Shown here piece by piece: positions 431-64,000 of a stretch of DNA of 64,000 bases (its first letter is position 1; each line of letters opens with the position of its first letter). Both the position numbers and the translations under genes were made by a program. The DNA comes from an uncultured SAR86 cluster bacterium. GTDB lineage: Bacteria; Pseudomonadota; Gammaproteobacteria; Magnimaribacterales; D2472. The stretch covers positions 96,989 through 160,988 of the forward strand of contig CACJML010000003.1 of NCBI GenBank assembly GCA_902594515.1. Direction: 5' to 3'. The notes below the pieces were generated by a model. The model ran no database searches. It worked only from the letters and a program-made list of their open reading frames with translations, and was not told the origin of the DNA.

Positions 431-2407
431 ATGTGCGGTATACTCGGTCAGGTTGATCCAAGAAACCAACTCCCATCGGAAGAGCAATTCTTGTCACTAT
501 TAAAGCTGCTCGATCACAGAGGTCCAGATGGTTTTGGGGCAAAAAAGCATAATAACTGTATTTTCGGCCATTCTCGATTGTCAATTTTAGATTTAAGTGA
601 TGCTGGCTCACAGCCTATGGAATCTAAATGCGGTAGATATCTTATTACATTCAATGGAGAAATTTATAACCATCAAGAAATCAGAGATGATTTGAGTAAA
701 AGCTTTAAGCTACAAAGAGATCATTGGGTGGGCAGTTCAGATACAGAAACTCTTCTTAGTTCTATTAGTTTATTGGGTTTAGAAAGCACAATGAAAATAG
801 TAAGGGGGATGTTTGCATTTGGCCTTTGGGATAAATTTGAAAAATCTATATCGCTTGTTAGAGATCCAATTGGAGAAAAGCCGCTCTATTACAACATTCA
901 AGACGGCTCATTAATATTTTCATCTGAATTGAAACCTATAAAAAAAATTCTTGGATCTTCTTTGAATATAAGCAAAGACGTTTTGACTCTTTATTTTAAG
1001 TATAACTATATTCCAACACCATACTCAATTTACGAAAATACTTTTAAATTGAATCCCGGCTCAATATTAAGAATTAGCCTTGATGCCTTAAATGATTCAA
1101 AAAGAATGAATATGAATTTTGAATATGTTAATAAAAATTTTGAATTATGTGAGTACTGGTCACTTGAGAAGTGTGCAAATGACGCCAACAAAAATAAATT
1201 TTCAACATACGACGAATCCCTTTTTGAGGTAAATAAAGCATTAAATTTATCTGTGCAAAGACAGCAAATTTCTGATGTTCCCCTAGGATGTTTTCTTTCA
1301 GGCGGCATCGACTCATCTTTGATTGCTTCTATAATGTCTGATCAGTGTGAATATAAGATTAATACATTCACAATTGGCTTTCATGAGAAGGAATTCGATG
1401 AATCAATTTATGCAAAAAGGATAGCTGATTTTATAGATTCAAATCATCACCAAAGAGTAATCTCTATAAATGACGCTATAGATATAATTCCTCAAATACC
1501 CAAAATTTATGATGAACCATTTGCTGATTCATCTCAAATTCCAACTTATCTAGTATCAAAAATTGCCAGAGAAAATGTTACTGTGTGTTTATCTGGTGAT
1601 GGGGGAGATGAATTTTTTGGAGGCTATAATAGACATTTTAAAGTTGTACCTTTAAGCAAATTAATTCATAGAATCCCTAGAAGTCTTAGACCTATATTGA
1701 GTTCATTTATAAGAAGCCTGAGCCAGTCTAATCTTAAGATAATTACTTATCTCTTTAATAAGATTTTTCAATCAAGTTCAAATATGAATGATAAACTTTT
1801 TCGGCTCTCAAGACGTATTGCTGAAAGTAAAACGAATAAAGATTTATATAGGAGTTTTCTTGTCGAATGGGATGATAATGAAAATTTATTAAGTGGCCTT
1901 AACGAGCCAGCACACTTTTTAAATCAACAATGGATGAACTTTGAAAATTTTGAAGAAACAATGATGTATGTTGATGCAAAAACTTATCTACCTGATGACA
2001 TACTTGTCAAAGTTGATAGAGCATCTATGGCCAATAGCTTAGAGACTAGAGCTCCTTTTTTAGATATAGACCTCATTAATACGTCATTTAAAGTGCCTTT
2101 GGAGCATAAAATTTCATCCTCATCCGGGAAAAAAGTATTAAAAGATTTATTACATAAAAAGATCCCTAGAGACCTATTTGATCGTCAGAAACAGGGATTT
2201 GGTGTTCCTGTAGCAGATTGGTTAAGAGGTCCGCTAAAAGATGATTTTGAGGCAATGATTTCAAAATCCTCAATTCAACAATATGATTTTATTGACTATG
2301 ATTTAATAAATAAAAAATGGAATCAGCATCTTAATAAAAGCCATAATTGGGCGCCATCATTGTGGAGCATATATATGTTGCAACTTTGGTCTGAAAACAA
2401 TCTATAG
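431..2407 (+). CDS. asnB: Asparagine synthase-family glutamine amidotransferase, polysaccharide-associated (WbpS/WbtH-like)
   Basis: N-terminal MCGI (Ntn Cys), HRGPD, FNGEIYNH, LSGGIDSS, SGDGGDE, VKVDRASMANSLETRAPFLD; located in a glycan cluster. Confidence 0.93.
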   Translation: MCGILGQVDPRNQLPSEEQFLSLLKLLDHRGPDGFGAKKHNNCIFGHSRLSILDLSDAGSQPMESKCGRYLITFNGEIYNHQEIRDDLSKSFKLQRDHWVGSSDTETLLSSISLLGLESTMKIVRGMFAFGLWDKFEKSISLVRDPIGEKPLYYNIQDGSLIFSSELKPIKKILGSSLNISKDVLTLYFKYNYIPTPYSIYENTFKLNPGSILRISLDALNDSKRMNMNFEYVNKNFELCEYWSLEKCANDANKNKFSTYDESLFEVNKALNLSVQRQQISDVPLGCFLSGGIDSSLIASIMSDQCEYKINTFTIGFHEKEFDESIYAKRIADFIDSNHHQRVISINDAIDIIPQIPKIYDEPFADSSQIPTYLVSKIARENVTVCLSGDGGDEFFGGYNRHFKVVPLSKLIHRIPRSLRPILSSFIRSLSQSNLKIITYLFNKIFQSSSNMNDKLFRLSRRIAESKTNKDLYRSFLVEWDDNENLLSGLNEPAHFLNQQWMNFENFEETMMYVDAKTYLPDDILVKVDRASMANSLETRAPFLDIDLINTSFKVPLEHKISSSSGKKVLKDLLHKKIPRDLFDRQKQGFGVPVADWLRGPLKDDFEAMISKSSIQQYDFIDYDLINKKWNQHLNKSHNWAPSLWSIYMLQLWSENNL

Positions 2408-2409
2408 AA

Positions 2410-3561
2410 ATGACATACAAATCTATCTCAACAATTATATTTTGCGGCCTATTAATTCGATTATTACTTGCTTACGTTAATGCATTTATAGGGCCCACGC
2501 CAGGAGGTGAAAATGATGCCCTCGGCTTTCATTTTGTTGGCTCTCACTATGCAATAACAGGAGATCCATTGGCACATGACATATACAGGGTGGGCTGGTA
2601 TTACTCATTATTTCTTGGATACGTATATAAATATTCTATTAACTCGATATTTTTGGGATCATTATTTTCAATTCTAGCTTGGTTTCTTTCAACATTGCTT
2701 GTACTCAGGATAATGGAATTGATAAATGCAAGCATTTTTCAGAAAGTTTGCTCAGCTAGTTTAATGTCATTTTTACCCTCAATGATTTTTTACTCCTCGG
2801 TAACTCTTCGTGAACCTTTTCAATTGTTTTTTTTAACCTTGCTTGTTTATTCGATATTAAGGTTTGCTTTAACAAAATCATTGCTGCATTTATTTTTACT
2901 TCCTTTAGCATTGTTTGGATTAGCATTGCTTCATCAGTCGCTTATTGTTACATCCATACTACTACTTCTGCTGTTTACCATTTATCTTTACTCAAAAGGC
3001 ATTAAGAAAATATGGCAAAACTTTGGCTTGTATATGATTTTTTTACTCATGATAGGACTGGTTCCGGTTGCTTCATCACTCATACAGACATTATCTTATA
3101 GCTTTGAAGCAGGCATAGTTGAATCATTAATTTCTCATAATGAAGGCTTGATCGGTGATGCTGGTCAGGCAAGAGCTAGATATAGAATTGAGCCACCTGA
3201 GAATTCTTTTTTTGGTATTTTTACATACCCATTTATTGCTTTTTTTCAATATCAACTAGAGCCTTTACCATGGAATGTTTCTAGTTTTGGAGATATATTG
3301 CTGTTTCTTGAGAATTTAATAAGAGTAACGATATTATTTTATTTAATAAAGTTTGCTTACAAAGAAGGACTTTTTAGCGTTGATTATATTTTTCCGTTAT
3401 TAATATCCTATTTAATTGTTGAAGGCATTTGGTCTTTGGGAACTATTAATTGGGGTACGGCCTCAAGACATCATATTCCTGCAATGGGTTTGTTATCAGT
3501 CCTAGGATTTTTCTTATATAGTGAAATAGAGAAAAAATTTGTGAAAAAGATACCAAGTTAA
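2410..3561 (+). CDS. Polytopic membrane protein, Wzy polymerase/GT-C-like
   Basis: About 10 hydrophobic segments, a large periplasmic loop, LREP and NWGTASRH motifs; polysaccharide context. Confidence 0.6.
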   Translation: MTYKSISTIIFCGLLIRLLLAYVNAFIGPTPGGENDALGFHFVGSHYAITGDPLAHDIYRVGWYYSLFLGYVYKYSINSIFLGSLFSILAWFLSTLLVLRIMELINASIFQKVCSASLMSFLPSMIFYSSVTLREPFQLFFLTLLVYSILRFALTKSLLHLFLLPLALFGLALLHQSLIVTSILLLLLFTIYLYSKGIKKIWQNFGLYMIFLLMIGLVPVASSLIQTLSYSFEAGIVESLISHNEGLIGDAGQARARYRIEPPENSFFGIFTYPFIAFFQYQLEPLPWNVSSFGDILLFLENLIRVTILFYLIKFAYKEGLFSVDYIFPLLISYLIVEGIWSLGTINWGTASRHHIPAMGLLSVLGFFLYSEIEKKFVKKIPS

Positions 3562-4553: not shown

Positions 4554-5509
4554 TGAAAACTCTACCAAAATTTATAATTTCATTAGACTATGAACTGCTT
4601 TGGGGGATGCTTGATGTAAAGAACCTCGATAAGTGCATTAGTAATGTAAGAGGAGAAACTAATGCAATTCCTAAGATGCTGGACTTATTTGAAAAATATA
4701 ATATTGGGGTCACTTGGGCAATTGTTGGTATGACGCTTTGTGAGAACTATGATGAGTGGAGATCTTTTAAACCTCAACAAATCCCAAAATATAAAAAAAA
4801 GGGCAAACCAACCAACTATGAGATTGACATAAGATCATTTAGAGATGAAGAATTATTCTTTCAAAAAGATATGATCAAAAGAATTGCCGCCTGTCCTCGC
4901 CAAGAAATAGCTTCTCATTCATACAGCCATCTTTATTTCAGTGAACCTGGAATCACCAATCAAGATATATCAAATGATTTTAGATTATTTGAAAATATCT
5001 CATTTCAAAATAATATTTCATGTAAATCCTTTATTTTTCCAAGAAATCAAGTAAATGATATTGCTCTTAAAGAACTAAAAAAGCATGAATTTAAAACCTA
5101 TAGAGGAAACCTTCAAAATTTTATTCAAAAGGACGGACATAAAGACTCACAGAGCCTATTCTTTAAGTTAATTAGATTTGGAGATTCATATATTCAGATA
5201 TCAAAAGATTTGAGTTATAAGAATTCTGCTAATGAAAATTTGTTAAATGTTCCAGGTAGTCTTTTTTTAAGGCCAGTAAATTCAAAAACTCCTTATGTTT
5301 TAAATAAGATGCATATCAAGAGAATAAAAAAATCTATGACCATAGCTGCTCAAAATAAAGAAACGTTCCATTTATGGTGGCATCCTCACAATTTTGGCAA
5401 TTCAACAGATGATAATCTCTTAAATCTGAGAGATATCCTCGAGCATTATACTGTGTTGAGTAACGAACATGGTATGACATCAAAAAATATGGGAGAGTTT
5501 ACTGTATGA
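4553..5509 (+). CDS. Polysaccharide deacetylase (NodB/CE4 family)
   Basis: ISLDYELLWG, TWAIVG, EIASHSYSH, SFIFPRN and FHLWWHPHNFG motifs. Confidence 0.88.
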   Translation: MKTLPKFIISLDYELLWGMLDVKNLDKCISNVRGETNAIPKMLDLFEKYNIGVTWAIVGMTLCENYDEWRSFKPQQIPKYKKKGKPTNYEIDIRSFRDEELFFQKDMIKRIAACPRQEIASHSYSHLYFSEPGITNQDISNDFRLFENISFQNNISCKSFIFPRNQVNDIALKELKKHEFKTYRGNLQNFIQKDGHKDSQSLFFKLIRFGDSYIQISKDLSYKNSANENLLNVPGSLFLRPVNSKTPYVLNKMHIKRIKKSMTIAAQNKETFHLWWHPHNFGNSTDDNLLNLRDILEHYTVLSNEHGMTSKNMGEFTV

Positions 5510-6267
5510 AGATTCTGCTTTTAGCGACTAATTCCGAAACCACAAACATATTAATTAATTCCTTAAAAAGTAGTTTCGATGTTGAAGTAATTTTTGAAGA
5601 AAAAGTGTCAAAGATTAATTTTTGGAGAAGGAGATTTCTTCATCAAGGATTCCTTAGAACTTTAAATCAAATTTTATTTTTACTCTTTATTCAATCACTA
5701 AAGCCACTTTATGTAAAAAATAAGTACAGCTTTTTTGCTAGAGAGAAATTTTTTTTAATTGACTCAGGCGATATAAAAATAAGAAACGTTAAGTCTATAA
5801 ATAGCGATGATTCAATAGATCTGATATCAACAATTGACGCAGATATAATTTTAATTAATGGAACGAGGATTTTATCAAAAAAATTACTTGATTCTATTAA
5901 AGCAGATTTTATAAACATTCATTGTGGTGTCACACCAAAGTATAGGGGTGTACATGGAGGTTATTGGGCCGCTTATAGTCAAGATTTTGAAAATCTTGGA
6001 GTAACAATTCATAAAGTTGATAAAGGAGTTGATACTGGTGAAATAATATTTCAAGAAAAAGTAGAGTACTCTAGTTCCTTAAATTATTTTATTTATCCAC
6101 TTAAGCAGTATAGTATCGCTATACCAAATCTTATTAAAATACTAAGAAAGTTTTCAGTCGAAGGTGTCTTTACAACATTTTATAGAAATGACTTGCCCTC
6201 CAAACTTTGGTATCATCCGACTCTCACAAGTTACTTGCATGGTTTGATATTTAGGGGAATTAAATAG
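5506..6267 (+). CDS. Formyltransferase (N10-formyl-THF dependent), likely acting on a sugar amine
   Basis: INIHCGVTPKYRG and GVTIHKVDKGVDTGEII formyltransferase signature. Confidence 0.87.
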   Translation: MKILLLATNSETTNILINSLKSSFDVEVIFEEKVSKINFWRRRFLHQGFLRTLNQILFLLFIQSLKPLYVKNKYSFFAREKFFLIDSGDIKIRNVKSINSDDSIDLISTIDADIILINGTRILSKKLLDSIKADFINIHCGVTPKYRGVHGGYWAAYSQDFENLGVTIHKVDKGVDTGEIIFQEKVEYSSSLNYFIYPLKQYSIAIPNLIKILRKFSVEGVFTTFYRNDLPSKLWYHPTLTSYLHGLIFRGIK

Positions 6268-41094: not shown

Positions 41095-41661
41095 ATGGAA
41101 AAGCATTTTATTAGAGCCGAAGATCTTATTCAGGACTCTTTCAACCTCGCTTTGCAAGTCTATGAGGATGGCTACAGGCCCAACTACATAATTGGTGTTT
41201 GGAGAGGCGGAGCGCCAATAGGAATTGCTGTTCAAGAACTTTTTAGTGTTCTAGGCGTTACTTCTGATCACATTGCCATCAGAACGTCTCATTATAAAGC
41301 TATCAATCAAAGAGAAACTGAAGTTCAAGTATATGGACTTAACTACATCATTAAGCAAGTGGAATCCGAAGATTCACTCCTTATAGTTGATGATGTCCAT
41401 GACACCGGCATATCTATTGAAAAGATAATTTCCGACCTTAAGTTCGCTTGTAAAAAAAATACACCTGAAATAAGAGTAGCTACACCATATTTCAAGCCAA
41501 CAAAAAATAAAACTAAAAGAAAACCAGATTACTACCTTCATGAAACTGATAAATGGTTAGTATTCCCACACGAACTTGAGGGCCTTTCATTAGAGGAAAT
41601 AGGAGATAATAAACCCGAAGTCTCAAAACTGATTAATAAGTTATCAAAGCTTATAAAATGA
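41095..41661 (+). CDS. Purine (hypoxanthine/xanthine-guanine) phosphoribosyltransferase
   Basis: [12 protein letters not shown]-binding [28 protein letters not shown]; overlaps the guaA start. Confidence 0.88.
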
Positions 41662-43238
41662 GTAGTAATATTTCTTTATCAAAAACAGATCTTGATACTA
41701 TTTTAGTTTTAGATTTTGGATCTCAATATACTCAATTAATAGCTAGGCGAGTAAGGGAACTCGGAGTATATTCCGAGATATTTCCTTGGGATATTCCAAC
41801 AGAAAAAATATCCTTACTTAATCCTAAGGGAGTAATTCTTTCTGGTGGCCCAGAATCTGTGACCCAAGAAAATACTCCAAGAATTCCAGAAATTATTTTT
41901 AACTTAGGTATTCCTATTCTGGGTATTTGTTATGGAATGCAGACATTGGCTGAGCAAAATGGAGGCAGTGTAAGCACTGCCTCTACGAAAGAGTTTGGTT
42001 ATGCAGAACTAAAGATTGAGTATCCATCAAAAATCTTTGATGGTCTAGATGTAAGAAATCTAGACGTTTGGATGAGTCACGGAGACCATGTTTCAATCTT
42101 GCCTGATGGTTTTATCTTGAGTGCATCAACTCAATCTGCGCCAATTGCTGCAATGGAGCACAAAGATAAGCCTTATTATGCTCTTCAATTCCATCCTGAA
42201 GTAACACACACAGATAAGGGTCAAAAAATCATAGAAAACTTCATATTAGATATTTGTAAATCTAATAGAAATTGGAAGTTAGATGACTTAATTGAACACA
42301 GAATAAAAGAGATTAAAGCTAAAGTAGGAGATAAAAAAGTTCTTTTGGGATTATCTGGGGGAGTCGATTCATCTGTAACTGCTATGTTGCTAGATAGGGC
42401 AATCGGCAAAAACTTAATTTGTATGTTCGTTGATAACGGACTTTTAAGAAAAAATGAAGTTGATGAGGTGGTAGATCTTTTTAAAAATAAAATTGATCTT
42501 AACCTTGAGGTTGTGGATGCAAAGAAAACATTTTTTAGACATCTTAAAGGTGTAACTGATCCTGAGCAAAAAAGAAAAGTTATTGGAAGGACCTTTATAG
42601 ATGTATTTGATAACGAATCAGTAAATCTGCATACCTCTGATGAGATTAATTTTTTAGCACAAGGAACAATTTATCCTGATGTGATTGAATCATCTGAATC
42701 TGAATCAAAAGAAGCAAGAATTATTAAGTCCCATCATAACGTTGGTGGCTTGCCAGAAGAAATGAAAATGAGCTTGGTTGAGCCGCTTAGGGATCTATTT
42801 AAAGATGAGGTCAGAAAAATGGGTGCCTTATTAGGCTTGCCTGTTGAAATACTTAAAAGACATCCTTTCCCTGGTCCTGGACTTGGGGTAAGAATATTGG
42901 GAGAGATAAATCAAGAAAATATTTCTATACTTCAAGAGGCAGACTCAATTTTTATTGATGAATTAAAAAAAGAAGGTCTTTATGATGAAGTAAGCCAAGC
43001 ATTTTGTGTATACCTGCCAGTCAAATCTGTTGGTGTAGTCGGCGATGAAAGACGTTATGCAGATGTTATAGCTCTAAGGTCTGTAAAAACTGTTGACTTT
43101 ATGACTGCAGAATGGTCAAAACTACCCCTAGAGTTTTTGGGTAGAGTATCAAATAGGATCGTAAATGAATTAGAGGAAGTAAGCAGGGTAGTTTATGACA
43201 TCTCAGGCAAACCACCTGCCACTATTGAGTGGGAGTAA
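41658..43238 (+). CDS. guaA: GMP synthase (glutamine-hydrolysing)
   Basis: [49 protein letters not shown]-terminal KPPATIEWE. Confidence 0.98.
43221..43238 (+). repeat. att-like direct repeat, copy 1 (guaA 3' end)
   Basis: ACTATTGAGTGGGAGTAA; 17/18 identical to 43792-43809. Confidence 0.85.
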
Positions 43239-43711
43239 TGATGCGTACGCTAAAAATCAGCACCTATTTAGCAGCAGATTTAGAGACGGTTAAGAGTTAT
43301 TTAATGACGCCAGCGCTACTCAATTATGTGGTGGCTGGTTTAATGAAATTCCATCCTATCGAACCAAATTTCTTTCCGTCAAAATGGGTTGAGGGGAAGT
43401 TCTCTGTAAAAATGTTCGCATTTCATTTTTTACCCATCGGAAAACAAATTGTAGGTATAGAATTTCCACAAAAATCCGATCATTGGGTTCTCAGAGATAA
43501 TGGAAGTGGTTCTATAGCAAAAACTTGGGATCATCTAATTTTTTTAGAATCGGAGGGAGGCGGAACTCGATATACAGATGAGGTTTCTATCGATGCTGGT
43601 CTTTTCACATTACCAATCTATATCTACGCATTCATTTTTTACTCCTATAGACAAATGCGATGGCGGAAACTAGTAAATCTCAATTTTAGGGAGTTACAAA
43701 AGCAGAAATGA
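43238..43711 (+). CDS. Hypothetical protein, probable SRPBCC/START-like fold
   Basis: ATG overlaps the guaA stop (TAATG; alternative ATG 43241); WDHLI...GGGTRYTDEV...FYSYRQMRW pattern typical of small SRPBCC-like proteins. Confidence 0.7.
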   Translation: MMRTLKISTYLAADLETVKSYLMTPALLNYVVAGLMKFHPIEPNFFPSKWVEGKFSVKMFAFHFLPIGKQIVGIEFPQKSDHWVLRDNGSGSIAKTWDHLIFLESEGGGTRYTDEVSIDAGLFTLPIYIYAFIFYSYRQMRWRKLVNLNFRELQKQK

Positions 43712-43719
43712 AGAACGAA

Positions 43720-43741
43720 ACTTGTAAACTACTTGTAAACT
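43720..43741 (+). repeat. Perfect tandem 11-bp repeat (ACTTGTAAACT x2), candidate integrase arm-type sites
   Basis: Read directly; about 50 bp from the right att-like repeat. Confidence 0.7.
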
Positions 43742-43791
43742 CAGTTTTGCCCCTCGTAAACCCTTGCTACATAAGGCTTTGTAAAAGTGTA

Positions 43792-43809
43792 ACTATTGAG
43801 TGGGAATAA
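43792..43809 (+). repeat. att-like direct repeat, copy 2
   Basis: ACTATTGAGTGGGAATAA, still encoding TIEWE* like the guaA C-terminus. Confidence 0.85.
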
Positions 43810-43810
43810 A

Positions 43811-44137
43811 ATGGAAGAATCTAATTACAAAGAATGGTCAGTTGATTTTAATGGAAAAATAATCAAAGTATCTAATTGGTGGAATTGGGAGGGGAAGTGT
43901 TCCGCAGATTTATATTTAGATAATGAGCACTTACATCAAAACACAGACATATTAGTAAATCCTAACAAAGCAATGCTTTTTAAAAGTGATGTTTCTGATG
44001 ATATAAAGTCTATTGAAGTTTTTTCAGCAGGGTTTTTCTCAGTCAAATTATCAATAATGGTGAACGGCACTGTGATTCTTCAAGATAAATTAAGTTTACT
44101 TGATAGATTTGCTAAATTATTTTTTTCAAAAAAATGA
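43811..44137 (+). CDS. Hypothetical small beta-rich protein
   Basis: ATG 43811 directly after repeat copy 2 (the track's TTG at 43796 lies inside the repeat); no recognised motif. Confidence 0.7.
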   Translation: MEESNYKEWSVDFNGKIIKVSNWWNWEGKCSADLYLDNEHLHQNTDILVNPNKAMLFKSDVSDDIKSIEVFSAGFFSVKLSIMVNGTVILQDKLSLLDRFAKLFFSKK

Positions 44138-45300
44138 AACAATCAGCCAGATTATCCTTTTACTCGGAGCTAGCTTTTGGCTTTGTTATTTTGCTTTATA
44201 CACTAGCAAACTTCTTATTAATTTTAGAGTTACCCTCAAATTTGATTGTCGGTTTAGCTGTGTTGCTATCAATTTCATTAATTATTCTAAACACACTTTA
44301 TAAAGGAGATTTTTATTTAAACTACATTGAAAAAAAAGCAGATCTTGTTTTGCTTGTCTCACTTCCATTAATTTTTTTATTTTTTAATCAGAACTTCGAA
44401 TCAGAATTTCTTGGTTTTATGTTAGTTGCGTCATTAAGTTATCTAGCAATATTTAACATGCGTAATTCTGATCTTCTATTATTAATATTTAGATGCATTT
44501 TTTACATTGTTCTTTTGGGAGTTTTGCTAGGCATCATTGAATACTATTTCTTTGAATCAAGTTATTTTAACGATACTGTTGAATTTTACCCATATAGCGC
44601 GAGTGGAACAAAGATTAGCTTTAGTGGCTTTATGTATAACTACAACTCAGTAACCTACTTTGTGATTTGCTATATGGCGCTTCTTTCTTTTCAGAATTCA
44701 GATATTAGAGACTATTTTTTACCGATAGTAATTTTATTTTTAATGTTTTCAAAGTTACTGATATTGTTTTTACTTCTTATCGTTTTAATTAAATTTTTCA
44801 AAGGAAAAGCAAGAATAGCTCTAAGCTTATTTGCAATAATGTCTTATTTAATTTTGTCGAATGTTGTAATTGTTGAGGAGGGGACTTACCCATATCCGTC
44901 TATGTATTTTAGAGAAATATTGACCTCATATATGAGTTGGGATTTAGTATTAAGCCTTCATGGGTGGTTAAAACAACAAGGTCTTCAAGAACTGCTAGTC
45001 GGAGCATCAAATTTTATTGAATTTGAAAATAAATATAGTTATCAGCCACACTCGTCATTAATATCATTTGGTTTATTGGGCGGTATTTATTTTCTTTTTT
45101 TATTTGTTGGGAACTTAATAATAGTTTCATTAAGAATCTTAAATCAGATAGATATTTCAGATGCCCCGATTTTATATGCAGCATTTTTAGCATTTTTGAT
45201 TGAATTAATTAATTGGGATTTTTATGATTCTTTCTATTTTTGGATAGTTTTTTTTATATGCTGCAAGAACTTGGTAAAAATTAAATCCAATAATAATTAG
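44134..45300 (+). CDS. O-antigen ligase/polymerase-like membrane protein
   Basis: About 11 hydrophobic segments and a Wzy_C-like PHSSLISFGLLGG motif near the C-terminus. Confidence 0.6.
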   Translation: MKQSARLSFYSELAFGFVILLYTLANFLLILELPSNLIVGLAVLLSISLIILNTLYKGDFYLNYIEKKADLVLLVSLPLIFLFFNQNFESEFLGFMLVASLSYLAIFNMRNSDLLLLIFRCIFYIVLLGVLLGIIEYYFFESSYFNDTVEFYPYSASGTKISFSGFMYNYNSVTYFVICYMALLSFQNSDIRDYFLPIVILFLMFSKLLILFLLLIVLIKFFKGKARIALSLFAIMSYLILSNVVIVEEGTYPYPSMYFREILTSYMSWDLVLSLHGWLKQQGLQELLVGASNFIEFENKYSYQPHSSLISFGLLGGIYFLFLFVGNLIIVSLRILNQIDISDAPILYAAFLAFLIELINWDFYDSFYFWIVFFICCKNLVKIKSNNN

Positions 45301-45438
45301 TTTTGCAGATCATGATATTATTTAATGAGTAAAAGTATTAATAACATAGAATAGTCAATGTCTTGATCTATAGTCGTTTATTTCCTATCAAGACAGAGAA
45401 GCCTATTTTTTTTGTTGCGATTTATTTGATTTTTAAAA

Positions 45439-46287
45439 GTGAAAATATTTATTTGTACCAACGAAAATCAACTAATTGCAGCACAAGTATCTAAGAACTC
45501 AATCCTAAAACGCTCTAGTGTTTCAGAAAAAGATATCAGTATTGTAATGGAGTCCGAAGTTGCTGAACTAAGTAATTTTCACTCAAAACCATACCTAAGG
45601 GACGGGAGGAAAATTAATCCTGATATAAATGATATGCAATCTTTTACTCTATTAAGATTTCTAATACCGGAGTTAATGAACTATGAGGGAAAGGCGCTTG
45701 TGCTTGATCCAGATATTTTTCTAGTGAAGAATGGTCTAGAAAAACTTGAACATTTAAACTTTGGTAATTCCGCAATATTTGCTCGAAAGGGTTTAAAGAA
45801 AGATTCATGGGGATCAAGTGTCCTCTTTCTATCATGCGATAAGCTCAAACATTGGTCACTTAGATCACTTATTAATGAGCTTCATCAATGCAAAATAGAT
45901 TACAGTGACCTAATTAATCTCAGATATGAAAATTCAGTTAGTCCATTGGAAACAAAGTGGAATGAATTTGATGAGATAAGAAAAGATACCATACTTCTTC
46001 ATACAACTGAGAGACTTACACAACCATGGAGAGCTGGATTGAAACTTAATTCATCAATAGAACCAATACTTAAATTTATTCCCAGGGCACCGATTTATAA
46101 GTTTTTTGGGAAAGATCTAACTGTCGGGCGAGAACATCCAAGCAAGGACGTAACAAAATTTTTTTTCAAGGAGTTATCTGAATGTATTTCAAAAGGAATT
46201 ATTAAAATGCATGATATTGACAAAGCCATTGCAAAAAATTTTTTAAGACATGACTTGAAAGATCAACTGAAAAATTTTTCTAATTAG
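45439..46287 (+). CDS. GT-A fold glycosyltransferase (GT8-like)
   Basis: FTLLRFLIPELMNYEGKALVLDPD (DxD), SSVLFL, WNEFD, LLHTT...QPW; GTG start. Confidence 0.75.
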   Translation: MKIFICTNENQLIAAQVSKNSILKRSSVSEKDISIVMESEVAELSNFHSKPYLRDGRKINPDINDMQSFTLLRFLIPELMNYEGKALVLDPDIFLVKNGLEKLEHLNFGNSAIFARKGLKKDSWGSSVLFLSCDKLKHWSLRSLINELHQCKIDYSDLINLRYENSVSPLETKWNEFDEIRKDTILLHTTERLTQPWRAGLKLNSSIEPILKFIPRAPIYKFFGKDLTVGREHPSKDVTKFFFKELSECISKGIIKMHDIDKAIAKNFLRHDLKDQLKNFSN

Positions 46288-46306
46288 TTTATAGGGGTGA
46301 TTAGTT

Positions 46307-47854
46307 ATTAAGAAATCTTATAAAATTGCAATAGTATCTCAAGCTTTACATCATCTCGAAAAAAGTCTTTTTTTAAAAGAAAATTTTTTTCAAAATGCAG
46401 TTATTCTTAATTTTCATCAAAATAAAGACAAGCTTAAATCTTTGCAGGATGATTTTGAAAGTAATTTAATTGAGCACTATCGAAATTTTGATCAACTTGA
46501 CTTTAGGCGTTTTAGAGAAGTAGAAATATTTATATTTTTTTCCTTCTCTCCTACTTTTCCTCTTTTAAAAATATATAAAAAAATAAAGGAAAGTAATAAA
46601 AAAATTATCTTAATTCAGGATAATCATCAGTTTTCAGTACATAAAGGCTCTGTAAATTCAATTATTTTGCGCCCAGACCTAGTAATTACAGCATCTGATT
46701 CAGAAAGAAAATATCTTATAGAAAACTTGGGCCTTCGTAACAATTGTATTTCGTCTCAAGGATGGTTATTTCAGAATAATAAAAGTATCTCCAATGAAAA
46801 ACCTATAAGTTTAAATAAAAAAATATTGATAGCTTTTGCCGCACCACCTTCTATTACCCCTCTTTCAGAGGAGACGTACTTGTTAAGGAAAGAGATTATT
46901 CTTTGGGTAACTAAAAATTTTCCTACATGTAATTTATTGATAAAGCTTCATCCCCATGAGGATCAAGGCAGCTTTAGAAAATTTATTAAGAGATATACCT
47001 TGAACCACATATTGCTTTCATCACAAAGCTCTATAAAAGAAGCAATCTCAGGTTCTGAAATAGTTATTTGTTCAAATGAATCTCAAATAGCACTTGATGT
47101 AATTTCAACTGATATAAGCAAAAGATTAATCATTTACCGTTTTAAAAAGAATAATTTCTTGTCAAATGAAATATCAGCTGAGCCAAAGTCTCTATTTAAA
47201 AATTCTGATTTTGAAATTTCTGAATTAGGAATTCAAGAAAAAAATAATATTGCCGAGAATTATTTAAGTCTTGACCATAGCGCTGAAGATATTATTAAAG
47301 ACAGGTTAGATAAGCTTTATCTTCAAGAAAATAATATGCATGCAAATGTTGATATTTTTCTATGGTTATTTATTTATGGCAAAAATAATGATCTTATTAA
47401 TTTTTTGCAATCCAATAAATCAGATAATTATAGAAATCTACATAATCTAATTCTGAATAAAAGCTTTAATTTAGAGCAATTGAATGATGATTTTCAGGAT
47501 ACATGGATAAGAGATCCTTTGTGCATAATTTTAATAAGACATTATTTACATAAAAAAGTTATTGATAAAGCGAGTGTTGAGATTATTACCAAAGACTTTT
47601 TTAGTATATATATTTTCCAATTCTTCTTTAGAGATTTTATTAGATTTTATAACTTAATAAATGCAAAAGGACTTTCGCGATTATTTGAAAAAAAATACCA
47701 TAATCTTGTAAATAAAATTGAAGACCTATATATCAATAAGTTCAGACCTTTTAGAATATTTTTTTCAGTACTAAAAATAATATATTCACTAAAGATAAAA
47801 ATCTTATCTGCATTTATCTTTAGACTTTCTGACGCAATTCTAAGATTTAAGTAA
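46307..47854 (+). CDS. Capsule/glycan-associated GT-B-like protein; probable ATT start
   Basis: Frame is open from 46301; SD AGGGGTGA ends at 46300 and ATT 46307 gives (M)KKSYKIAIV; LLIKLHPHE and SEIVICSNESQIALD resemble GT-B motifs. Confidence 0.55.
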   Translation: MKKSYKIAIVSQALHHLEKSLFLKENFFQNAVILNFHQNKDKLKSLQDDFESNLIEHYRNFDQLDFRRFREVEIFIFFSFSPTFPLLKIYKKIKESNKKIILIQDNHQFSVHKGSVNSIILRPDLVITASDSERKYLIENLGLRNNCISSQGWLFQNNKSISNEKPISLNKKILIAFAAPPSITPLSEETYLLRKEIILWVTKNFPTCNLLIKLHPHEDQGSFRKFIKRYTLNHILLSSQSSIKEAISGSEIVICSNESQIALDVISTDISKRLIIYRFKKNNFLSNEISAEPKSLFKNSDFEISELGIQEKNNIAENYLSLDHSAEDIIKDRLDKLYLQENNMHANVDIFLWLFIYGKNNDLINFLQSNKSDNYRNLHNLILNKSFNLEQLNDDFQDTWIRDPLCIILIRHYLHKKVIDKASVEIITKDFFSIYIFQFFFRDFIRFYNLINAKGLSRLFEKKYHNLVNKIEDLYINKFRPFRIFFSVLKIIYSLKIKILSAFIFRLSDAILRFK

Positions 47855-47937
47855 AAAAGAACTAAAGATATAATTAATTAATTTAGATTATGGCTTTAAT
47901 ATGATCAGAGGATATTTATAACCTAAATTTGTATTTT

Positions 47938-49704
47938 ATGTTTTATTACTCATCTTTAAAAAAAATCCTTCGCGAAGAATTTAATCAGATTTACATTATT
48001 TCATTTTTTGTATTTTTGTCCGCTTTATTAGAACTAATATCACTTTTAATGATTAGTTACATCATTGCAAATGCAGGACAACTAAATGAAGTTCTAAATT
48101 CTCTAAATAATTTTATTCAAATTTTTAATGATAATTTCTTGATAGAGAACCTTGCATCAATATTAATTTTCGTTCTTTCTTATATCTTATTGTCGGTAGT
48201 TTTCTATTTAATTATTATTAGATATTCTAGTTTCAAGGTTCATGGGTTGGTAAGTAATGTAAGAACTAGAATTATTCATAAACTTCTTGATATGAATTAT
48301 TTCGTAGATGGCAACCAAAAGAAATCTAAAATTATTTCGAACATTATTTTTGATTCCTCTCAGTTTGGAGCAAGCTTAATCGACCTTGTCCATTTAATTA
48401 GCAGGCTTTGTCTCACTTTAATTATTTTTATATGGCTTTTATTTGTAAATGTGGTTGTTACTCTATCCATGATTTCCATTTTAATGATTCTTTACCTTGC
48501 AATTCACTTCATCATCACACCCAAGATTAGACGTTCTGCTAACAACATTGCAGTTTTTAATGAATTATTGATAAAAGAACTTTCTAATTTTTTTGGATAT
48601 ATTCGAGAGATAATTTTTTACAACATACAGGATAAAGTTATCAATCAGTTAAGTGGTACAAATAATAATATTGCTGCTTCAACGGGGTCCAAGTCATTTC
48701 TAGTGAATATGCCTAGATTTCTAGTTGACTCACTAATACTAATATTACTTGCTTCTTTTGTTTTAGTGGCTAATTCATATCAACAAGACTTTGTAGGATT
48801 TTATAGCTTACTAGCAACATATGGAATTGCAGCTATAAAACTTTTGCCCGCTGTTCAAAATATTTTCTACTATACTCAGCAATTATTATCTAGAAAACCA
48901 AATATGGTAAATCTAAATAATTTTTTTGATTCAAAAGAGGATCATCAAAAAAATACAGAACTCATAGAGAGTTTGATCCCTGATCTAAAAGAAAAAATTA
49001 AACTATCCAACATTTCGTATCAATCAAATACTAATGATTCAATTCTGGAAAACATTTCACTTGAAATAAATTTTTCAGATAAGTTAGCTATTGTCGGTCC
49101 ATCTGGATCTGGTAAATCATTTTTAATGAATACAATTATCGGTCTTAGCAGTCCAACCAGTGGATCACTGGAAATCGATGGAATCAGAATTGACGATAGT
49201 AATGTTAATTCCTATCGAGACAAGATTTCCTACATACCACAAAAAATTTTCCTTAGCGAAGGAACAATTAAAGATAATGTACTTTTATTTAGTAAAGAAA
49301 ATTTTAAGGAGTCTAGATATAAAGACGCTCTAAAGCAGTCCGGTATGGAATTTATTCTCAATAACAGTGAGCAGAATGATGAAACTACTATATCAGATCA
49401 AAGCCATAACCTTTCAGGTGGCGAAAAACAGTGTTTAGGGTATGCAAGAGCGCTTTATGAGAGAAGAAATATTATAGCCCTTGATGAAGCTACTTCATCT
49501 ATGGATTTTAATCTAGCCAGCCAAGTGATCTCTTCAATTTTAAAAGAATGGAAAACGGTAATATGCATTACTCATCAATCATATCTTCTTCGTAATTTTG
49601 AAAAAATAATCGTCATGGATGATGGAAAAATCCAAGATTTGGGTAGTTACGAGGATCTACTTCTAAGAAATGAGTATTTCAAAAATCTATGTTCTAATGA
49701 ATAA
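47938..49704 (+). CDS. ABC transporter permease/ATPase fusion (MsbA/PglK-like, possible glycan flippase)
   Basis: N-terminal TM domain; Walker A GPSGSGKS, Q-loop YIPQ, LSGGEKQ, Walker B LDEATSSMD, ITH switch. Confidence 0.88.
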   Translation: MFYYSSLKKILREEFNQIYIISFFVFLSALLELISLLMISYIIANAGQLNEVLNSLNNFIQIFNDNFLIENLASILIFVLSYILLSVVFYLIIIRYSSFKVHGLVSNVRTRIIHKLLDMNYFVDGNQKKSKIISNIIFDSSQFGASLIDLVHLISRLCLTLIIFIWLLFVNVVVTLSMISILMILYLAIHFIITPKIRRSANNIAVFNELLIKELSNFFGYIREIIFYNIQDKVINQLSGTNNNIAASTGSKSFLVNMPRFLVDSLILILLASFVLVANSYQQDFVGFYSLLATYGIAAIKLLPAVQNIFYYTQQLLSRKPNMVNLNNFFDSKEDHQKNTELIESLIPDLKEKIKLSNISYQSNTNDSILENISLEINFSDKLAIVGPSGSGKSFLMNTIIGLSSPTSGSLEIDGIRIDDSNVNSYRDKISYIPQKIFLSEGTIKDNVLLFSKENFKESRYKDALKQSGMEFILNNSEQNDETTISDQSHNLSGGEKQCLGYARALYERRNIIALDEATSSMDFNLASQVISSILKEWKTVICITHQSYLLRNFEKIIVMDDGKIQDLGSYEDLLLRNEYFKNLCSNE

Positions 49705-61625: not shown

Positions 61626-62223
61626 GATGCTTCTCTATTAAACCAGATAAAATTAAATCAGATAAAAAATTTGATGCATCTTCTGGTGAAGCCAATGACG
61701 GCTTAGAGTGAATTTTTTTATTTTGAAAGTATCTGCCTAAACCTCCCAAGGCCAAAGCTGCTGCTTCGGTATCGATATTAGCAATTTCATTAGCATGAAC
61801 AGCATCATCCAAAAGGCTCTTAATAAAATTTGTAATGTAATTTTCATGAAAATCTATCATTTCGTTGGTTGAATGTTTTTTGCTCAAAGATAAAGTAAAT
61901 TTTTCAAATCTTGGACCCACAGCCTGATTAACAGTATTCAAGTAGACACGCAATTTTTCTATGGGAGAATCTAGTGTTTGAATTTTTTCCATAGCAATTT
62001 TGCCATGCCTGGTTAAAACATTATTAATGGTTAAATTTATCAGCTCATCCTTACTCGGCGCAATTTCATACAGAGTTCTCAGGGATACCTTAAGCATTGA
62101 CGCTAAATCGGCCATTGTTTTATATGACTTACCCTCATCAATTATCTTTTCAAGCCGATCCATGACTTCATGATGACGATGGTTTAAAGTACTTGCTTCT
62201 TTTAGGAGAGCTTTATTCATCAA
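61618..62223 (-). CDS. TetR-family transcriptional regulator
   Basis: HTH TMADLASMLKVSLRTLYEIAPSKDEL. Confidence 0.88.
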   Translation of the reverse strand: MMNKALLKEASTLNHRHHEVMDRLEKIIDEGKSYKTMADLASMLKVSLRTLYEIAPSKDELINLTINNVLTRHGKIAMEKIQTLDSPIEKLRVYLNTVNQAVGPRFEKFTLSLSKKHSTNEMIDFHENYITNFIKSLLDDAVHANEIANIDTEAAALALGGLGRYFQNKKIHSKPSLASPEDASNFLSDLILSGLIEKHHD

Positions 62224-64000
62224 TTACCAATAGTGATTCACCGTTTTCAACCTGCTGACCTTTTTTAACCATAATCTTTGAAATTTTGCCTGCATTTGGT
62301 GACTTGATCGTTTGCTCCATCTTCATAGCTTCAATAATCATTAATGATTGTCCAGCTTTAACTTTTTGATCTTTTTTTATAAGAACCTCTGAAATTTTGC
62401 CTGGCATCGGAGCCAACAAGCCACCTTCAATGGATGAAGTACTTGGATCATCGAATCTTGGTAAAACTTTTAGTTGGATATCATTAAATGAGTCAAAAAC
62501 GAATAACCTATCTTCGTCCCTATAAATTTGATATTGACTTCTAATACCATCAATAACACATTCAAGCATTTCATTATCAAAGGAAATAATTTCTACATTT
62601 TTTTCAAGAATCGAAATAGATTCTTTATTTATGTAGCTATATTTAATTTGATGTACCTCATTTTCAAATTGAAAAGAAATATTCTGATGCGGCAGTCGAC
62701 CGTTCGTCCAAGAATGCTTAATAAATCGGAGTTTATTTTTATTTTTGATATTAGTTTGTGATATCCACAAAGCGCCTGCAATCATTAAGTTATTTTTATC
62801 ATGATCGTTGAGAACTTTTTTTCTGTTAGGACTTTGAATCTCAATAAAGTCAGATGTTGTATTTCCCGCCAAAAACTCTGGATGCCTGATGCATTCAACT
62901 AAAAAATCTTTATTTGTTTTCACTCCTCCAATACAGGATTTTTCAAGGGCGGTTGCGAGTTGCAAGCATGCATCTGTCCTGTTGGGGGCCCAGCTGATTA
63001 CTTTTGAGAGCATTGGATCAAAGTTTGTACCGACTTCATATCCTTTCTGGACACCTGAATCCCACCTAATAAATTTATTTTTGTAAGGTTCATAACATAC
63101 TATTTTTCCAGTTTCAGGTAGAAAATCATTATTTGGATTCTCTGCATAAAGTCGAACTTCCAGTGCATGCCCATTAAATTCAACATCTTTTTGTTTTAAT
63201 TCTAGATACTCATTTTTTGCAATGTTTATCTGTGCTCTTACAAGATCAACTCCTGTAACTTCCTCAGTAACAGGATGTTCAACTTGCAACCTAGTGTTAA
63301 CTTCAAGAAACCAGAACTCATTTGTATTTTCATCAAGAATAAATTCGACAGTGCCTGCCGATTGATATTTAATTTTTTTTGCCAATTTGACTGCCGCATT
63401 ACCAATTTGCTCTCTTAACTCATCATCAAGTTTGGGTGAAGGGGACTCTTCAATAATTTTTTGATGTCGTCTCTGAATTGAGCATTCTCTTTCACCAAGA
63501 TGTATAACATTTCCATGTTGATCACCCAGAATCTGAATCTCAATGTGTCTTGATTTTTTAATGTATTTCTCAATAAATACTCTCTCATCATCAAAACCAG
63601 CTTTTGCTTCTCTTTTTGCAGCTGCAACCGCATCTTTAAGCTCATTTTTATTATTAACAATTCTCATCCCTTTACCGCCGCCTCCAGCAGCAGCTTTAAT
63701 TAGCAATGGGAATCCAAGTTGTTTTGAATCTTTAATACTTTCAGCTTTTTCTAGAGTTGGTACGTTTGCTTTTATCGCCAATTCTTTAGCTTTGATTTTG
63801 TCTCCCATCACCTTAATAACATGAGGTGTTGGTCCTATCCAAATTATGTTGTTACGAATTACTTTTCTAGCAAAAATTGAGTTTTCAGATAGAAACCCAT
63901 AGCCAGGATGGATTGCATCGGCTCCTGTTTTTTTTGCTGAATCTACAATTTCATCTGCATCCAAATAGCCTTTTTTAAGTTTTATTGCAACATCAGACAT
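62213..64000 (-). CDS. Biotin-dependent acyl-CoA carboxylase alpha subunit (biotin carboxylase plus carrier; AtuF/LiuD-like), 5' end outside the window
   Basis: IHPGYGFLSEN, KAAAGGGGKGMR, ERECSIQRRHQK, EVNTRLQVEHPVTE, biotinyl EAMKME; the usual N-terminal IANRGEIA is missing, so the gene is cut by the window edge. Confidence 0.93.
   Translation of the reverse strand: MSDVAIKLKKGYLDADEIVDSAKKTGADAIHPGYGFLSENSIFARKVIRNNIIWIGPTPHVIKVMGDKIKAKELAIKANVPTLEKAESIKDSKQLGFPLLIKAAAGGGGKGMRIVNNKNELKDAVAAAKREAKAGFDDERVFIEKYIKKSRHIEIQILGDQHGNVIHLGERECSIQRRHQKIIEESPSPKLDDELREQIGNAAVKLAKKIKYQSAGTVEFILDENTNEFWFLEVNTRLQVEHPVTEEVTGVDLVRAQINIAKNEYLELKQKDVEFNGHALEVRLYAENPNNDFLPETGKIVCYEPYKNKFIRWDSGVQKGYEVGTNFDPMLSKVISWAPNRTDACLQLATALEKSCIGGVKTNKDFLVECIRHPEFLAGNTTSDFIEIQSPNRKKVLNDHDKNNLMIAGALWISQTNIKNKNKLRFIKHSWTNGRLPHQNISFQFENEVHQIKYSYINKESISILEKNVEIISFDNEMLECVIDGIRSQYQIYRDEDRLFVFDSFNDIQLKVLPRFDDPSTSSIEGGLLAPMPGKISEVLIKKDQKVKAGQSLMIIEAMKMEQTIKSPNAGKISKIMVKKGQQVENGESLLVIDE

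Follow-up and report, generated by a model that had tools for sequence, protein, structure and literature searches.

The stretch from 43239 to 43809 of the window, the 64,000 nucleotides of an uncultured SAR86 genome analyzed here, is quite probably a non-autonomous gene cassette that was integrated site-specifically at the end of guaA, with its left boundary in the core at 43221-43238. Its parts would be a cargo gene lacking a promoter, an arm about 80 nt long, and a copy of the end of guaA. Bacteria of this kind dominate surface seawater with genomes of 1-1.6 Mb that hold very few mobile elements.

The attachment site on the chromosome is the last codons of guaA, which encodes a GMP synthase of 526 aa on the plus strand (41658-43238 in the ORF list; Pfam GATase, NAD_synthase, and GMP_synt_C). 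Its five final codons and TAA form the 18-mer ACTATTGAGTGGGAGTAA (attL; 43221-43238, plus strand), and a second copy, ACTATTGAGTGGGAATAA (attR; 43792-43809, plus strand), differs by one mismatch, G to A at position 15, and begins 571 bp after the first; both were delimited from the sequence and by comparison of carriers. These are the only two matches in the window at up to 3 mismatches, where shuffled sequences gave a mean of 0.04, and the only two in the whole 1.36-Mb genome at up to 2. The sequence-only reading had described a guaA end repeated 571 bp apart around a single ORF rich in CG dinucleotides, whose excision would leave a protein ending in TIEWE, and all of this held when the repeat, its chance expectation, the ORF, and its composition were checked. 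Read from the sequence, excision between the copies would yield ...GAG TGG GAA TAA, with TIEWE and the stop retained. As in known guaA islands, the insertion lies in the last guaA codons with frame and stop codon restored, and the GAGTGGGA core stands in direct repeats at both ends. Misassembly was considered and rejected, since 11 other genomes, whose flanks differ, have these junctions too.

The cargo ORF is the sole ORF between the core copies and is intact, running on the plus strand from 43238 to 43711 (stop at 43709-43711) and encoding 157 aa from the ATG at 43238 or 156 aa from the ATG at 43241. The guaA stop codon overlaps its start (TAATG), and the GGGAG of the left core is likely its ribosome-binding site, to judge from the sequence, because it lies 5 nt upstream of the second ATG. 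No promoter-like or terminator-like site was seen on the plus strand between guaA and 43810. The cassette carries 34 CpG per kb versus 14.6 in the whole window, which places it at the 99.8th percentile of 553-nt windows, and its GC content is 37.4% versus 34.0%. Searches of Pfam and NCBIfam gave no match for the protein, and a single-protein scan of viral contigs, sensitive to close relatives only, found no relative; metagenomes hold 86 homologues, and one distant homologue has a weak match to Polyketide_cyc2 (E 0.0014) that falls short of the cut-off. An AlphaFold2 model (mean pLDDT 93.5; secondary structure E-H-H-E6-H) has the beta sheet around a long C-terminal helix that marks the helix-grip START/SRPBCC superfamily, and Foldseek aligned it to COXG, PYL, Bet v 1, and START structures (E 1e-5 to 4e-4, TM 0.5-0.7). 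As modeled, the cargo thus has a putative ligand-binding fold of the START/SRPBCC type, long C-terminal helix included. The two main alleles differ with a pN/pS of 0.3-0.4, and the ORF is intact in 10 of 11 copies.

Between the cargo and the second core lies the right (P-type) arm, 80 non-coding nt read from the sequence at 43712-43791 on the plus strand. TTGTAAAC occurs twice as a direct repeat (43722-43729 and 43733-43740, 11 bp apart), followed by a T-rich spacer and an imperfect palindrome, AAACCCTT (43758-43765) and AAGGCTTT (43773-43780), from which 11 nt lead to the core. Other cassettes share this layout with different repeat words. There are no arm repeats on the left side, so the cassette holds only half of a classical attP. 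The window's arm alone is also found beside other cargo: 28 metagenome contigs with the exact arm and core have 26-27 different sequences after the core and, in at least 3 of the 28, other cargo upstream. None of these contigs runs into the left end of the cassette, as a circle or tandem junction would, and no integrase was found in any of them. An attC-like hairpin was tried as a reading of the arm and rejected, its folding being barely below that of shuffles (mean folding energy of 51 arms −8.1 kcal/mol, versus −6.1 for shuffles and −9.5 for guaA coding sequence).

Of 266 genomes of the order, 12 carry cassette DNA of 96-100% identity at the end of guaA, and all four families are represented; identity in the adjoining guaA is only about 50-85%. 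When three carriers are aligned, guaA is 45-85% identical, the step up to 92-100% comes precisely at the left core, and directly beyond the right core the sequences become unalignable, with unrelated downstream flanks. Four copies from three families (G000, G023, G232, and G233) are 99.6-100% identical across all 553 nt, including the arm, and this points, as far as sequence comparison goes, to very recent transfers. Two genomes (G064 and G092) have the cassette within arrays, away from guaA, while G107 and G104 have it without a recognizable distal core, so some copies may be immobile. Among same-genus genomes the ORF is found in 0 of 8, and one of them, G005, presents an empty site in which guaA, 121 bp, and the same downstream genes follow one another without the cassette. 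The adjacent glycosylation island looks exchanged by homologous recombination, its genes being 97.6% identical to those of G005 over 3.9 kb while guaA is 84.7% identical. Next to the cassette, at 43810-44137 on the plus strand, is a second variable unit, an ORF of 108 aa (ATG at 43811) that has no Pfam or NCBIfam match and whose stop overlaps the start of the next gene. It is missing from G005, and in G002 it stands right after a degenerate core copy and has a different continuation; it is probably an older cassette whose distal core was lost.

These comparisons lead us to read the window cassette as a mobile unit and not a fixed scar. The sequence-only reading had weighed a minimal non-autonomous cassette against a reduced island scar, and near-identity across four families inside diverged flanks favors the cassette; the ORF is not fixed in all relatives, as its absence from the same genus and the empty site attest, and relatives do carry other ORFs flanked by these repeats, one example being a contig with a guaA protein that shares 92% identity with that of the window. 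The junctions it had proposed to look for were found in part: the empty-site allele exists in G005, but neither Logan contigs from four runs nor the 28 metagenome contigs gave a circle or skip junction. Over 42400-45400 the Logan contigs contained no clean joint skipping 43239-43809 and no circle back-joint; joints ending at 43791 had sides of only 22-27 nt and are unreliable.

If the unit arrived by site-specific integration and has since been stranded, its spread would record a past burst. The missing junctions, the lack of an integrase in any of the 12 carriers, the copies in G107 and G104 that have no distal core, and a neighbor at 43810-44137 that has already lost its own would all fit such a relic. 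Against this stand the four copies in three families that remain 99.6-100% identical over 553 nt, the intactness of both cores and the arm, and the conservation of the arm beside different cargo, and we regard a stranded relic as unlikely.

Differences between host and element at the cores locate the crossover. Across 11 instances, the left half of attL varies by host (ACT ATT GAG, ACA ATT GAG, ACC ATC GAG, and ACC ATA GAA), and GGGAGTAA is constant together with the following TGATGCG (TGACGCG in G064). In the 9 instances that have an attR, each arm type keeps an invariant left half, with variation at position 15 and in the stop codon. By these patterns, the host supplies the left half of attL and the element its right half from GTAA onwards, and at attR the element supplies the left half and the host position 15 and the stop codon. 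These differences put the crossover in TGGGA, part of the core GAGTGGGA that is also that of GIsul2.

The earlier description of the unit as integrase-free stands. No tyrosine integrase of its own lies beside attL, where there is only the ORF with the START-like fold, and the window genome (93% complete) contains just two recombinase genes, both XerC/XerD-like, of 307 aa, and away from the cassette. Searching elsewhere for an integrase, as had been suggested, failed in the window genome and succeeded at the same site in four others: units with a Phage_integrase gene and a Resolvase gene lie directly behind guaA in G061, G082, and G046, and in G224 an integrase follows guaA on a contig that ends soon after. 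A search with the G061 integrase matched these 4 of 266 genomes (about 1.5%), and all 4 matches abut the guaA end. These integrases have relatives in other proteobacterial orders, and of the 11 best 10 are adjacent to guaA, versus 0 of 37 weaker ones. Units combining a tyrosine integrase and a resolvase were found neither in the window genome nor in the 11 other carriers; each of the 12 has at most 2 Phage_integrase matches, as do most array-bearing genomes. The other 42 loci showed no integrase remnants, and none of the third recombinases of five family-f1 genomes is near guaA. Genes for transfer, replication, or capsids are absent from the integrase units. In a tblastn search of 72,556 plasmid records, the G061 integrase had one match, in Rhizobium at 25% identity, and single-protein scans of viral contigs, which reach close relatives only, found no relative of the G061 or G082 integrases. 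Core patterns do occur in 19 viral contigs, in 11 of which the match ends a guaA or a guaA fragment.

Some of these integrase units share arms with integrase-less cassettes. The right arm of the G082 unit is 80-81% identical to cassette arms at four other loci, and that of G046 is 73-79% identical to three others; a shuffle control, run on the window's arm, reached a maximum of 64%. No integrase unit of the window's arm class, with TTGTAAAC repeats, was found in 44 loci or the 28 metagenome contigs. Integrase units also stand in tandem with other units (4 in G082, 2 in G046), an arrangement the window does not have.

We therefore favor a cassette moved by integrases of this guaA-linked lineage. 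For entry, a circular cassette (arm, core, cargo) would recombine with the 3' end of guaA, strand exchange would occur within the TGGGA of the GAGTGGGA core, and the guaA stop codon would be rebuilt. The cargo ATG would come to lie on that stop, so transcription from guaA and coupled translation, with GGGAG as ribosome-binding site, are most likely for the cargo. The best candidate recombinases would be the guaA-specific tyrosine integrases of the rare integrase and resolvase units in related bacteria, which could act in trans; alternatively, integrase units may carry neighboring cassettes along in tandem and later excise alone. We infer the acting enzyme, the circular intermediate, the passage from cell to cell, and the mode of cargo expression, and mobilization in trans, which the sequence-only reading had proposed, keeps the same standing because no excision or circle was seen and no integrase matching the arm class was found.

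Another recombinase could be responsible: XerC/XerD of the host, acting as on modules flanked by dif, or the serine resolvase of the parent units. In most array-carrying genomes the two Xer-like genes are the sole tyrosine recombinases, each of the 3 complete integrase units also has a resolvase, and in TAG-ending copies the core forms a dyad, ACTATT-GAGTGGG-AATAGT. By inspection, however, the core lacks the 11-6-11 arrangement found in dif sites, and the integrase lineage is tied to guaA in all four homologues in the order as well as in the 10 of 11 best relatives elsewhere. The arms of the cassettes carry tandem repeats one helical turn apart, which is typical of arm-binding integrases. Given also that, in the excerpts of PMC9376610 used here, the GIsul2 integrase was required, we consider another recombinase improbable. 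Hardly credible is a history with no site-specific event, in which an ancestral gene was lost from most lineages or was swapped homologously through a guaA conserved enough to serve as homology arm, as the adjacent glycosylation island seems to have been (97.6% to G005, versus 84.7% in guaA), since identity shifts over a few bases at either core, sequence downstream is unrelated among the carriers, and the cassette also sits within arrays away from guaA (G064 and G092). Vertical descent is ruled out by the 96-100% identity between families that differ by 25-40% in guaA.

The preferred reading, a cassette moved by guaA-specific integrases, has its closest known counterpart in GIsul2. The sequence-only reading had described guaA's GAGTGGGA core as a hotspot for integrases, and passages of PMC9376610 and a table row of PMC5704250 back this. 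In those passages, the GIsul2 integrase recombines 19-bp att sites with the GAGTGGGA core at the guaA end, and such sites also bound CR2-sul2, a unit without an integrase that the same enzyme moves (PMC9376610). On this partial account, the systems share the target in the last guaA codons, the GAGTGGGA core, short att copies (18-19 bp), an integrase-less att-bounded unit that the integrase of an island can move, and an island with a tyrosine integrase beside attL and a resolvase gene, comparable to the integrase units here. They differ in that our units span 0.2-7 kb versus about 15 kb, are mostly single promoterless genes in arrays of free-living marine bacteria with 1-1.6 Mb genomes, and have parent units that lack replication or transfer genes. 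The plasmid collection gave no GIsul2-like match for our integrases, a comparison made without a GIsul2 sequence.

The cis-mobilizable elements (CIMEs) at streptococcal ICE/IME sites are described, in the part of PMC5704250 used here, as decay products formed in place. Like them, the window unit is bounded by attL and attR and has no integration or transfer genes. CIMEs stand in tandem with integrase-bearing elements behind a conserved gene, at its 3' end, and at the guaA end such tandems were seen in G082 and G046 but not in the window; by analogy, co-excision after accretion would be a plausible route. Unlike CIMEs as so described, the window unit travels as such, with identical 571-bp copies in three families, and the layout of core, ORF, and arm is compact and uniform; 99.6-100% identical units and the lack of integrase remnants in 42 loci speak against decay in place from an ICE or IME.

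Additive flexible genomic islands of 'Ca. Methylopumilus', with 20-mer repeats of tRNA-Lys (PMC10872708, in excerpt), offer a third comparison. There, too, hosts are streamlined and planktonic, the last 18-20 nt of the target recur between variable blocks that differ among close relatives, as they do at guaA, sizes start at a few hundred bp, and cargo is mostly of unknown function. As far as that excerpt goes, the guaA site differs in that its target is a protein-coding gene and not tRNA or tmRNA, so each copy must supply a stop codon as well, and in that integrase units, an arm layout, and a crossover interval are identified for it. In the literature searched, supplementary files lying outside the search, nothing on the guaA site was found under SAR86 additive flexible genomic islands, papers pairing SAR86 with guaA were unrelated, the tycheposon preprint does not mention guaA or GMP, and no guaA cassette arrays were described for marine bacteria.

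Integron cassettes resemble the guaA units in forming arrays of mostly single, promoterless, co-oriented ORFs that each carry a terminal recombination site, in cargo of diverse small enzymes, and in expression that would come from an upstream resident promoter. The guaA arrays differ in that their recombination site is the end of a housekeeping gene and in that the genomes bearing them have no IntI-type integrase or attI. A palindrome is present, but not the single-strand-folding imperfect inverted repeat of attC; since the arms fold no clearly better than shuffles, nothing points to attC-like single-strand sites.

Beyond the window, the end of guaA is, on the evidence of these genomes, an order-wide stack of such units. 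At least 2 same-strand copies of the guaA end are present in 84 of 266 genomes (a hand count of the table), and at least 31 of the 118 genomes with listed coordinates have copies clustered on one contig. The 55 units examined range from 176 to 5493 bp with a median of 1.1 kb and are mostly single promoterless ORFs; in those of up to 2 kb, 44 ORFs are co-oriented with guaA and 6 opposite, and the first ATG lies −3 to +12 nt from the core end in 15 of 39 units. Other guaA cassettes cross genera too, with 94-99.6% protein identity. One cargo ORF, of 397 aa in G146, matches the Pfam Beta-lactamase family; no antibiotic resistance gene and no ISCR element was seen in the units examined.

A broader view, which we hold tentatively and as somewhat less than an even bet, is that the guaA end hosts a distributed, integron-like exchange of cassettes in which rare integrase and resolvase units are the drivers. 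The last codons of an essential gene would act simultaneously as attachment site, stop codon, and ribosome-binding site, and promoterless genes would circulate singly between families, every one of them with a short arm made of tandem 8-9-mer repeats. The repeat words of the arms (TTGTAAAC, ATACAAAC, GTGACACA, and TGACAAAC) would define specificity classes of drivers, a guild of units that loads and unloads cassettes and then leaves. The arm and core offer defined substrates for experiments, and the integrases are candidate enzymes for them. The principle known from GIsul2 and CR2-sul2 in antibiotic-resistance islands is here extended to an ecological setting and to the form of a cassette array. 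The finding bears on how streamlined marine bacteria exchange accessory genes, by pointing to an essential gene whose end is a hotspot at which single genes, near-identical across families, are stacked and probably expressed from the host gene. If the exchange view is true, this would be a main route of accessory-gene flux in cells otherwise nearly devoid of mobile elements.

The 3' end of guaA (41658-43238, + strand, from the ORF list and Pfam domains) carries the left copy of the 18-nt core (attL, 43221-43238, + strand), which is the last 18 bases of the gene, ACTATTGAGTGGGAGTAA, and a right copy with a single change, G to A at position 15, lies 571 bp from it (attR, 43792-43809, + strand). 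With up to 3 mismatches allowed, the window has no further match (shuffled sequences gave a mean of 0.04), and with up to 2 allowed, the whole genome (1.36 Mb, 16 contigs) holds the same two copies only. The single ORF between the cores begins at an ATG at 43238 or 43241 on the + strand and stops at 43709-43711 (156-157 aa), with 80 nt of non-coding DNA, the arm, between it and the right core. The sequence-only reading had described a guaA-end repeat recurring 571 bp on around one ORF that looked richer in CpG than its neighbours; the mismatch search and ORF list bear out the former, and CpG density bears out the latter (34/kb in the cassette against 14.6/kb in the window, the 99.8th percentile).

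Comparison across the order indicates that this cassette moves horizontally. Searched as a protein in 60 relatives, the cargo ORF is missing from all 8 same-genus genomes and has matches of 92-100% identity in 3 genomes that belong to other genera or families. At the DNA level, 12 of the 266 genomes of the order contain the ORF-bearing part with a nucleotide identity of 96-100%, in families f1 (G000, G023, G033, G104 and G107), f2 (G232 and G233), f3 (G050, G064, G092 and G097) and f4 (G249), with 16 more genomes matching the arm or short pieces only. When 3 carriers are aligned, guaA identity runs at 45-85% in 60-nt windows, then at 92-100% exactly from the left core, and past the right core the sequence is at once unalignable. 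All copies with enough left sequence stand behind a guaA end or, in G064 and G092, behind a core copy within an array; the G097 copy is truncated by a contig end. The same-genus genome G005 has guaA, 121 bp and then the downstream genes of the window, with neither the cassette nor the small ORF after it, and is an empty-site allele. The minimal cassette preferred at the outset is supported by comparative evidence, including the empty site in a relative, and one outcome that would have told against it, an ORF fixed in all relatives, is contradicted by the same-genus genomes. In G107 (locus L073) and G104 (L075), the cargo lies at the guaA end, but its C-terminus is of a third type (RPLKYNA) and no distal core can be recognised behind it; these may be fixed copies.

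The point of exchange can be narrowed by comparing 11 instances of the cassette. The left half of attL consists of the host's own codons (ACT ATT GAG, ACA ATT GAG, ACC ATC GAG or ACC ATA GAA) or, at array-internal positions, of the arm of the preceding cassette, and its right half, GGGAGTAA then TGATGCG, is invariant except for TGACGCG in G064. At attR, it is the left part, ACTATTGAGTGGGA (ATTATTGAGTGGGA in G092), that is invariant within one arm type, with variation at position 15 (A or G), in the stop codon (TAA, TGA or TAG) and in all sequence beyond. Since the two sites vary in opposite patterns, the exchange falls between positions 9 and 15, in TGGGA. Copies that end in TAG plus T have the core ACTATT-GAGTGGG-AATAGT, a 6-bp dyad around 7 bp. 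TGGGA falls within the GAGTGGGA core given for GIsul2 (PMC9376610).

The arms share a layout ahead of the core: an 8-9-mer is repeated once in direct orientation at a distance of 11 bp, and it is followed by a T-rich spacer, an imperfect palindrome (GAAACCC...GGGTTTC type) and some 10 nt that lead to the core. The repeat word of the window's arm is TTGTAAAC (43722-43729 and 43733-43740), and those of other classes are ATACAAAC, GTGACACA or TGACAAAC; tandem repeats one helical turn apart resemble arm-type integrase binding sites, and these may be such sites. Folding of the palindrome was not clearly better than that of shuffled sequence. Cargo and arm are modular: copies of the window's ORF fall into three types by their 3' end and arm, the break lying at nt 452, and the window's arm also adjoins other cargo.

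In natural populations, assembled contigs from four marine sequencing runs, each of a different study, were compared with 42400-45400. Several stopped at 43237-43238, that is, at the core; loose contig ends held the other C-terminal variant and, in a single run, sequence other than guaA ahead of the left core. Summed contig depth, which is no copy number, was greater over the cassette than over the flanks and is only a hint that many genomes share it. The exact arm plus core occurs in 28 metagenome contigs and continues into 26-27 different sequences; ahead of it stands the window's cargo in 7 and other cargo in at least 3, one of the latter contigs encoding a guaA protein 92% identical to the window's. 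Different ORFs between the same repeats, one check proposed for the cassette, were found, including other cargo beside the window's own arm; the circular junction and empty-site joint proposed for sequencing data did not appear, nor did an integrase, in the assembled contigs of the four runs or the 28 metagenome contigs.

Across the order, the guaA end is a cassette stack. A degenerate guaA-end pattern (at most 1 mismatch) occurs 2-6 times on one strand in 84 of 266 genomes by hand count, and of 118 genomes with coordinates, 31 have their copies grouped on a single contig and 4 others have them scattered. The 39 guaA-downstream loci surveyed and the window together contain 55 units that run from core to core and measure 176-5493 bp, with a median of 1135, and 44 of these units are no longer than 2 kb; in these short units, 44 ORFs of at least 60 aa are co-oriented with guaA and 6 are opposite, and the first ATG lies -3 to +12 nt from the core end in 15 of 39 units, overlapping or abutting the previous stop codon. 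Other cassettes too occur in more than one genus, at 94-99.6% protein identity. Twenty sampled ORFs from other units include HAD, alpha/beta and dienelactone hydrolases, HNH and GIY-YIG nucleases, an amine oxidase, a GST, methyl-, acyl- and formyl-transferases and an IMPDH/GMP-reductase-like protein, with 6 of the 20 lacking any family; a MerC-like protein is present in G046. A 176-bp core-to-core unit in G081 (L014, oriented coordinates 5503-5679) is an "empty cassette" of arm only, with no ORF, and suggests that arm plus core is the minimal cis element. In a 301-genome sample of the class, about 16 genomes outside the order have at least 2 exact same-strand copies, some only 0.9-2.7 kb apart (the tally takes in four unpublished genomes, one match each); small guaA units are therefore not confined to this order, and they are far commoner inside it than elsewhere in the class.

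G139 has two guaA-end arrays, on contigs C1 and C2 (L031 and L032), each headed by a guaA-like end; possible explanations are a second guaA, a mixed bin and a duplication. G137 (L030, oriented coordinates 1802-3151) has an IMPDH/GMP-reductase-like gene between the guaA end and a longer duplicate of at least 40 nt of guaA 3' coding region, another kind of duplication than the 18-nt cores. Among 19 predicted viral contigs with the core pattern (L052-L070), 11 hold the guaA end or just its last 25-50 codons, a hint that other taxa have proviruses or islands at guaA.

As for the enzyme, this genome has just two Phage_integrase matches, 307-aa ORFs on other contigs, taken to be XerC and XerD by their size and presence in nearly all genomes. 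The first unit behind guaA in G061 (3320 bp) and G082 (5493 bp) opens with a tyrosine integrase (411 or 438 aa) followed by a serine resolvase, and the complete genome G046 has a 7157-bp unit with integrase, resolvase, a 533-aa ORF and a methylase plus MvaI/BcnI-type restriction pair, after which come two small cassettes. The G061 integrase matches 4 of the 266 genomes, all four times abutting the guaA end, with pairwise identity among the four of just 27-49%. When their alignment was scanned against one genome per species, 10 of 11 best matches adjoined guaA, as against 0 of 37 weaker ones, so this is a broad lineage of guaA-specific integrases; those at guaA come from Arenicellales, SAR92, Luminiphilus, Hydrogenophilales and several Alphaproteobacteria, with a resolvase in 4 of 10. 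On its right side, the G082 unit has an arm 80-81% identical to integrase-less cassette arms in four loci, and the right arm of the G046 unit is 73-79% identical to those in three. A tyrosine integrase elsewhere, one of the things to look for, is thus present in these four genomes, but none goes with the window's own cassette: none of its 12 carriers has a G061-like integrase or more than 2 Phage_integrase matches, and no integrase unit in the 44 loci compared has its arm class, the best value lying inside the shuffled-arm range. The arrays of G086 (L016), G088 (L018) and G059 (L024) finish, after the last core, with about 70 nt (TAAATC.GTCT.AAAGT...CAAACTTCATACAAAG) similar to the start of the G082 integrase unit on its left side, with no integrase behind them; these tails may be what is left of integrase units that departed or were deleted.

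Between guaA and 43810 there is no promoter-like or terminator-like site on the + strand, and the GGGAG of the core ends 5 nt upstream of the second ATG of the cargo ORF; together with co-orientation and the ATG at the stop codon, this makes expression by read-through from guaA with translational coupling likely. The cargo protein has no Pfam or NCBIfam match and 86 homologues, mainly from marine metagenomes (clusters of up to 827 members), the remoter of which one source labels SRPBCC ligand-binding proteins. Its AlphaFold2 model (28-sequence alignment, mean pLDDT 93.5) matches START, Bet v 1, PYL and COXG structures at TM 0.5-0.7. Ten of 11 copies keep the ORF intact, and comparison of the two main alleles gives a pN/pS of 0.3-0.4, so the cargo is under purifying selection.

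Directly past the right core, a second unit with a 108-aa ORF and no family match (43810-44137) is absent in G005; in G002, where an array of three cassettes closes with a degenerate core copy, CCTATTGAGTGTGAATAA, the unit follows this copy directly and has another continuation. It is probably an older cassette that no longer has its distal core. Beyond it, a low-GC (21-31%) cluster (44134-48494, on to about 52000) encodes an O-antigen-ligase-like membrane protein, a family-8 glycosyltransferase and an ABC exporter. Its identity to G005 is 97.6% over 3.9 kb as against just 84.7% in the adjoining guaA, as if homologous recombination had exchanged a surface-glycan island here. Farther on, two 73-nt direct repeats (62220-62403, repeat family D1), 73% alike and 111 nt apart, may be repeated domains in a - strand gene.

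An integron reading of the guaA array is ruled out, there being no IntI and no attC-like fold. The closest system is GIsul2, which has the same target and core and whose integrase moves the integrase-less CR2-sul2 unit (PMC9376610). The descriptive part of the definition of a CIME (PMC5704250) likewise applies to the window's unit, and the array follows the pattern of an "additive flexible genomic island", reported at tRNA ends in streamlined freshwater bacteria (PMC10872708). In contrast to these systems, the unit described here is a compact, travelling, single-gene one that stacks in promoterless, co-oriented arrays at a protein-coding gene, with small integrase-plus-resolvase units without transfer genes as putative helpers, and its hosts are marine bacteria with genomes of 1-1.6 Mb.
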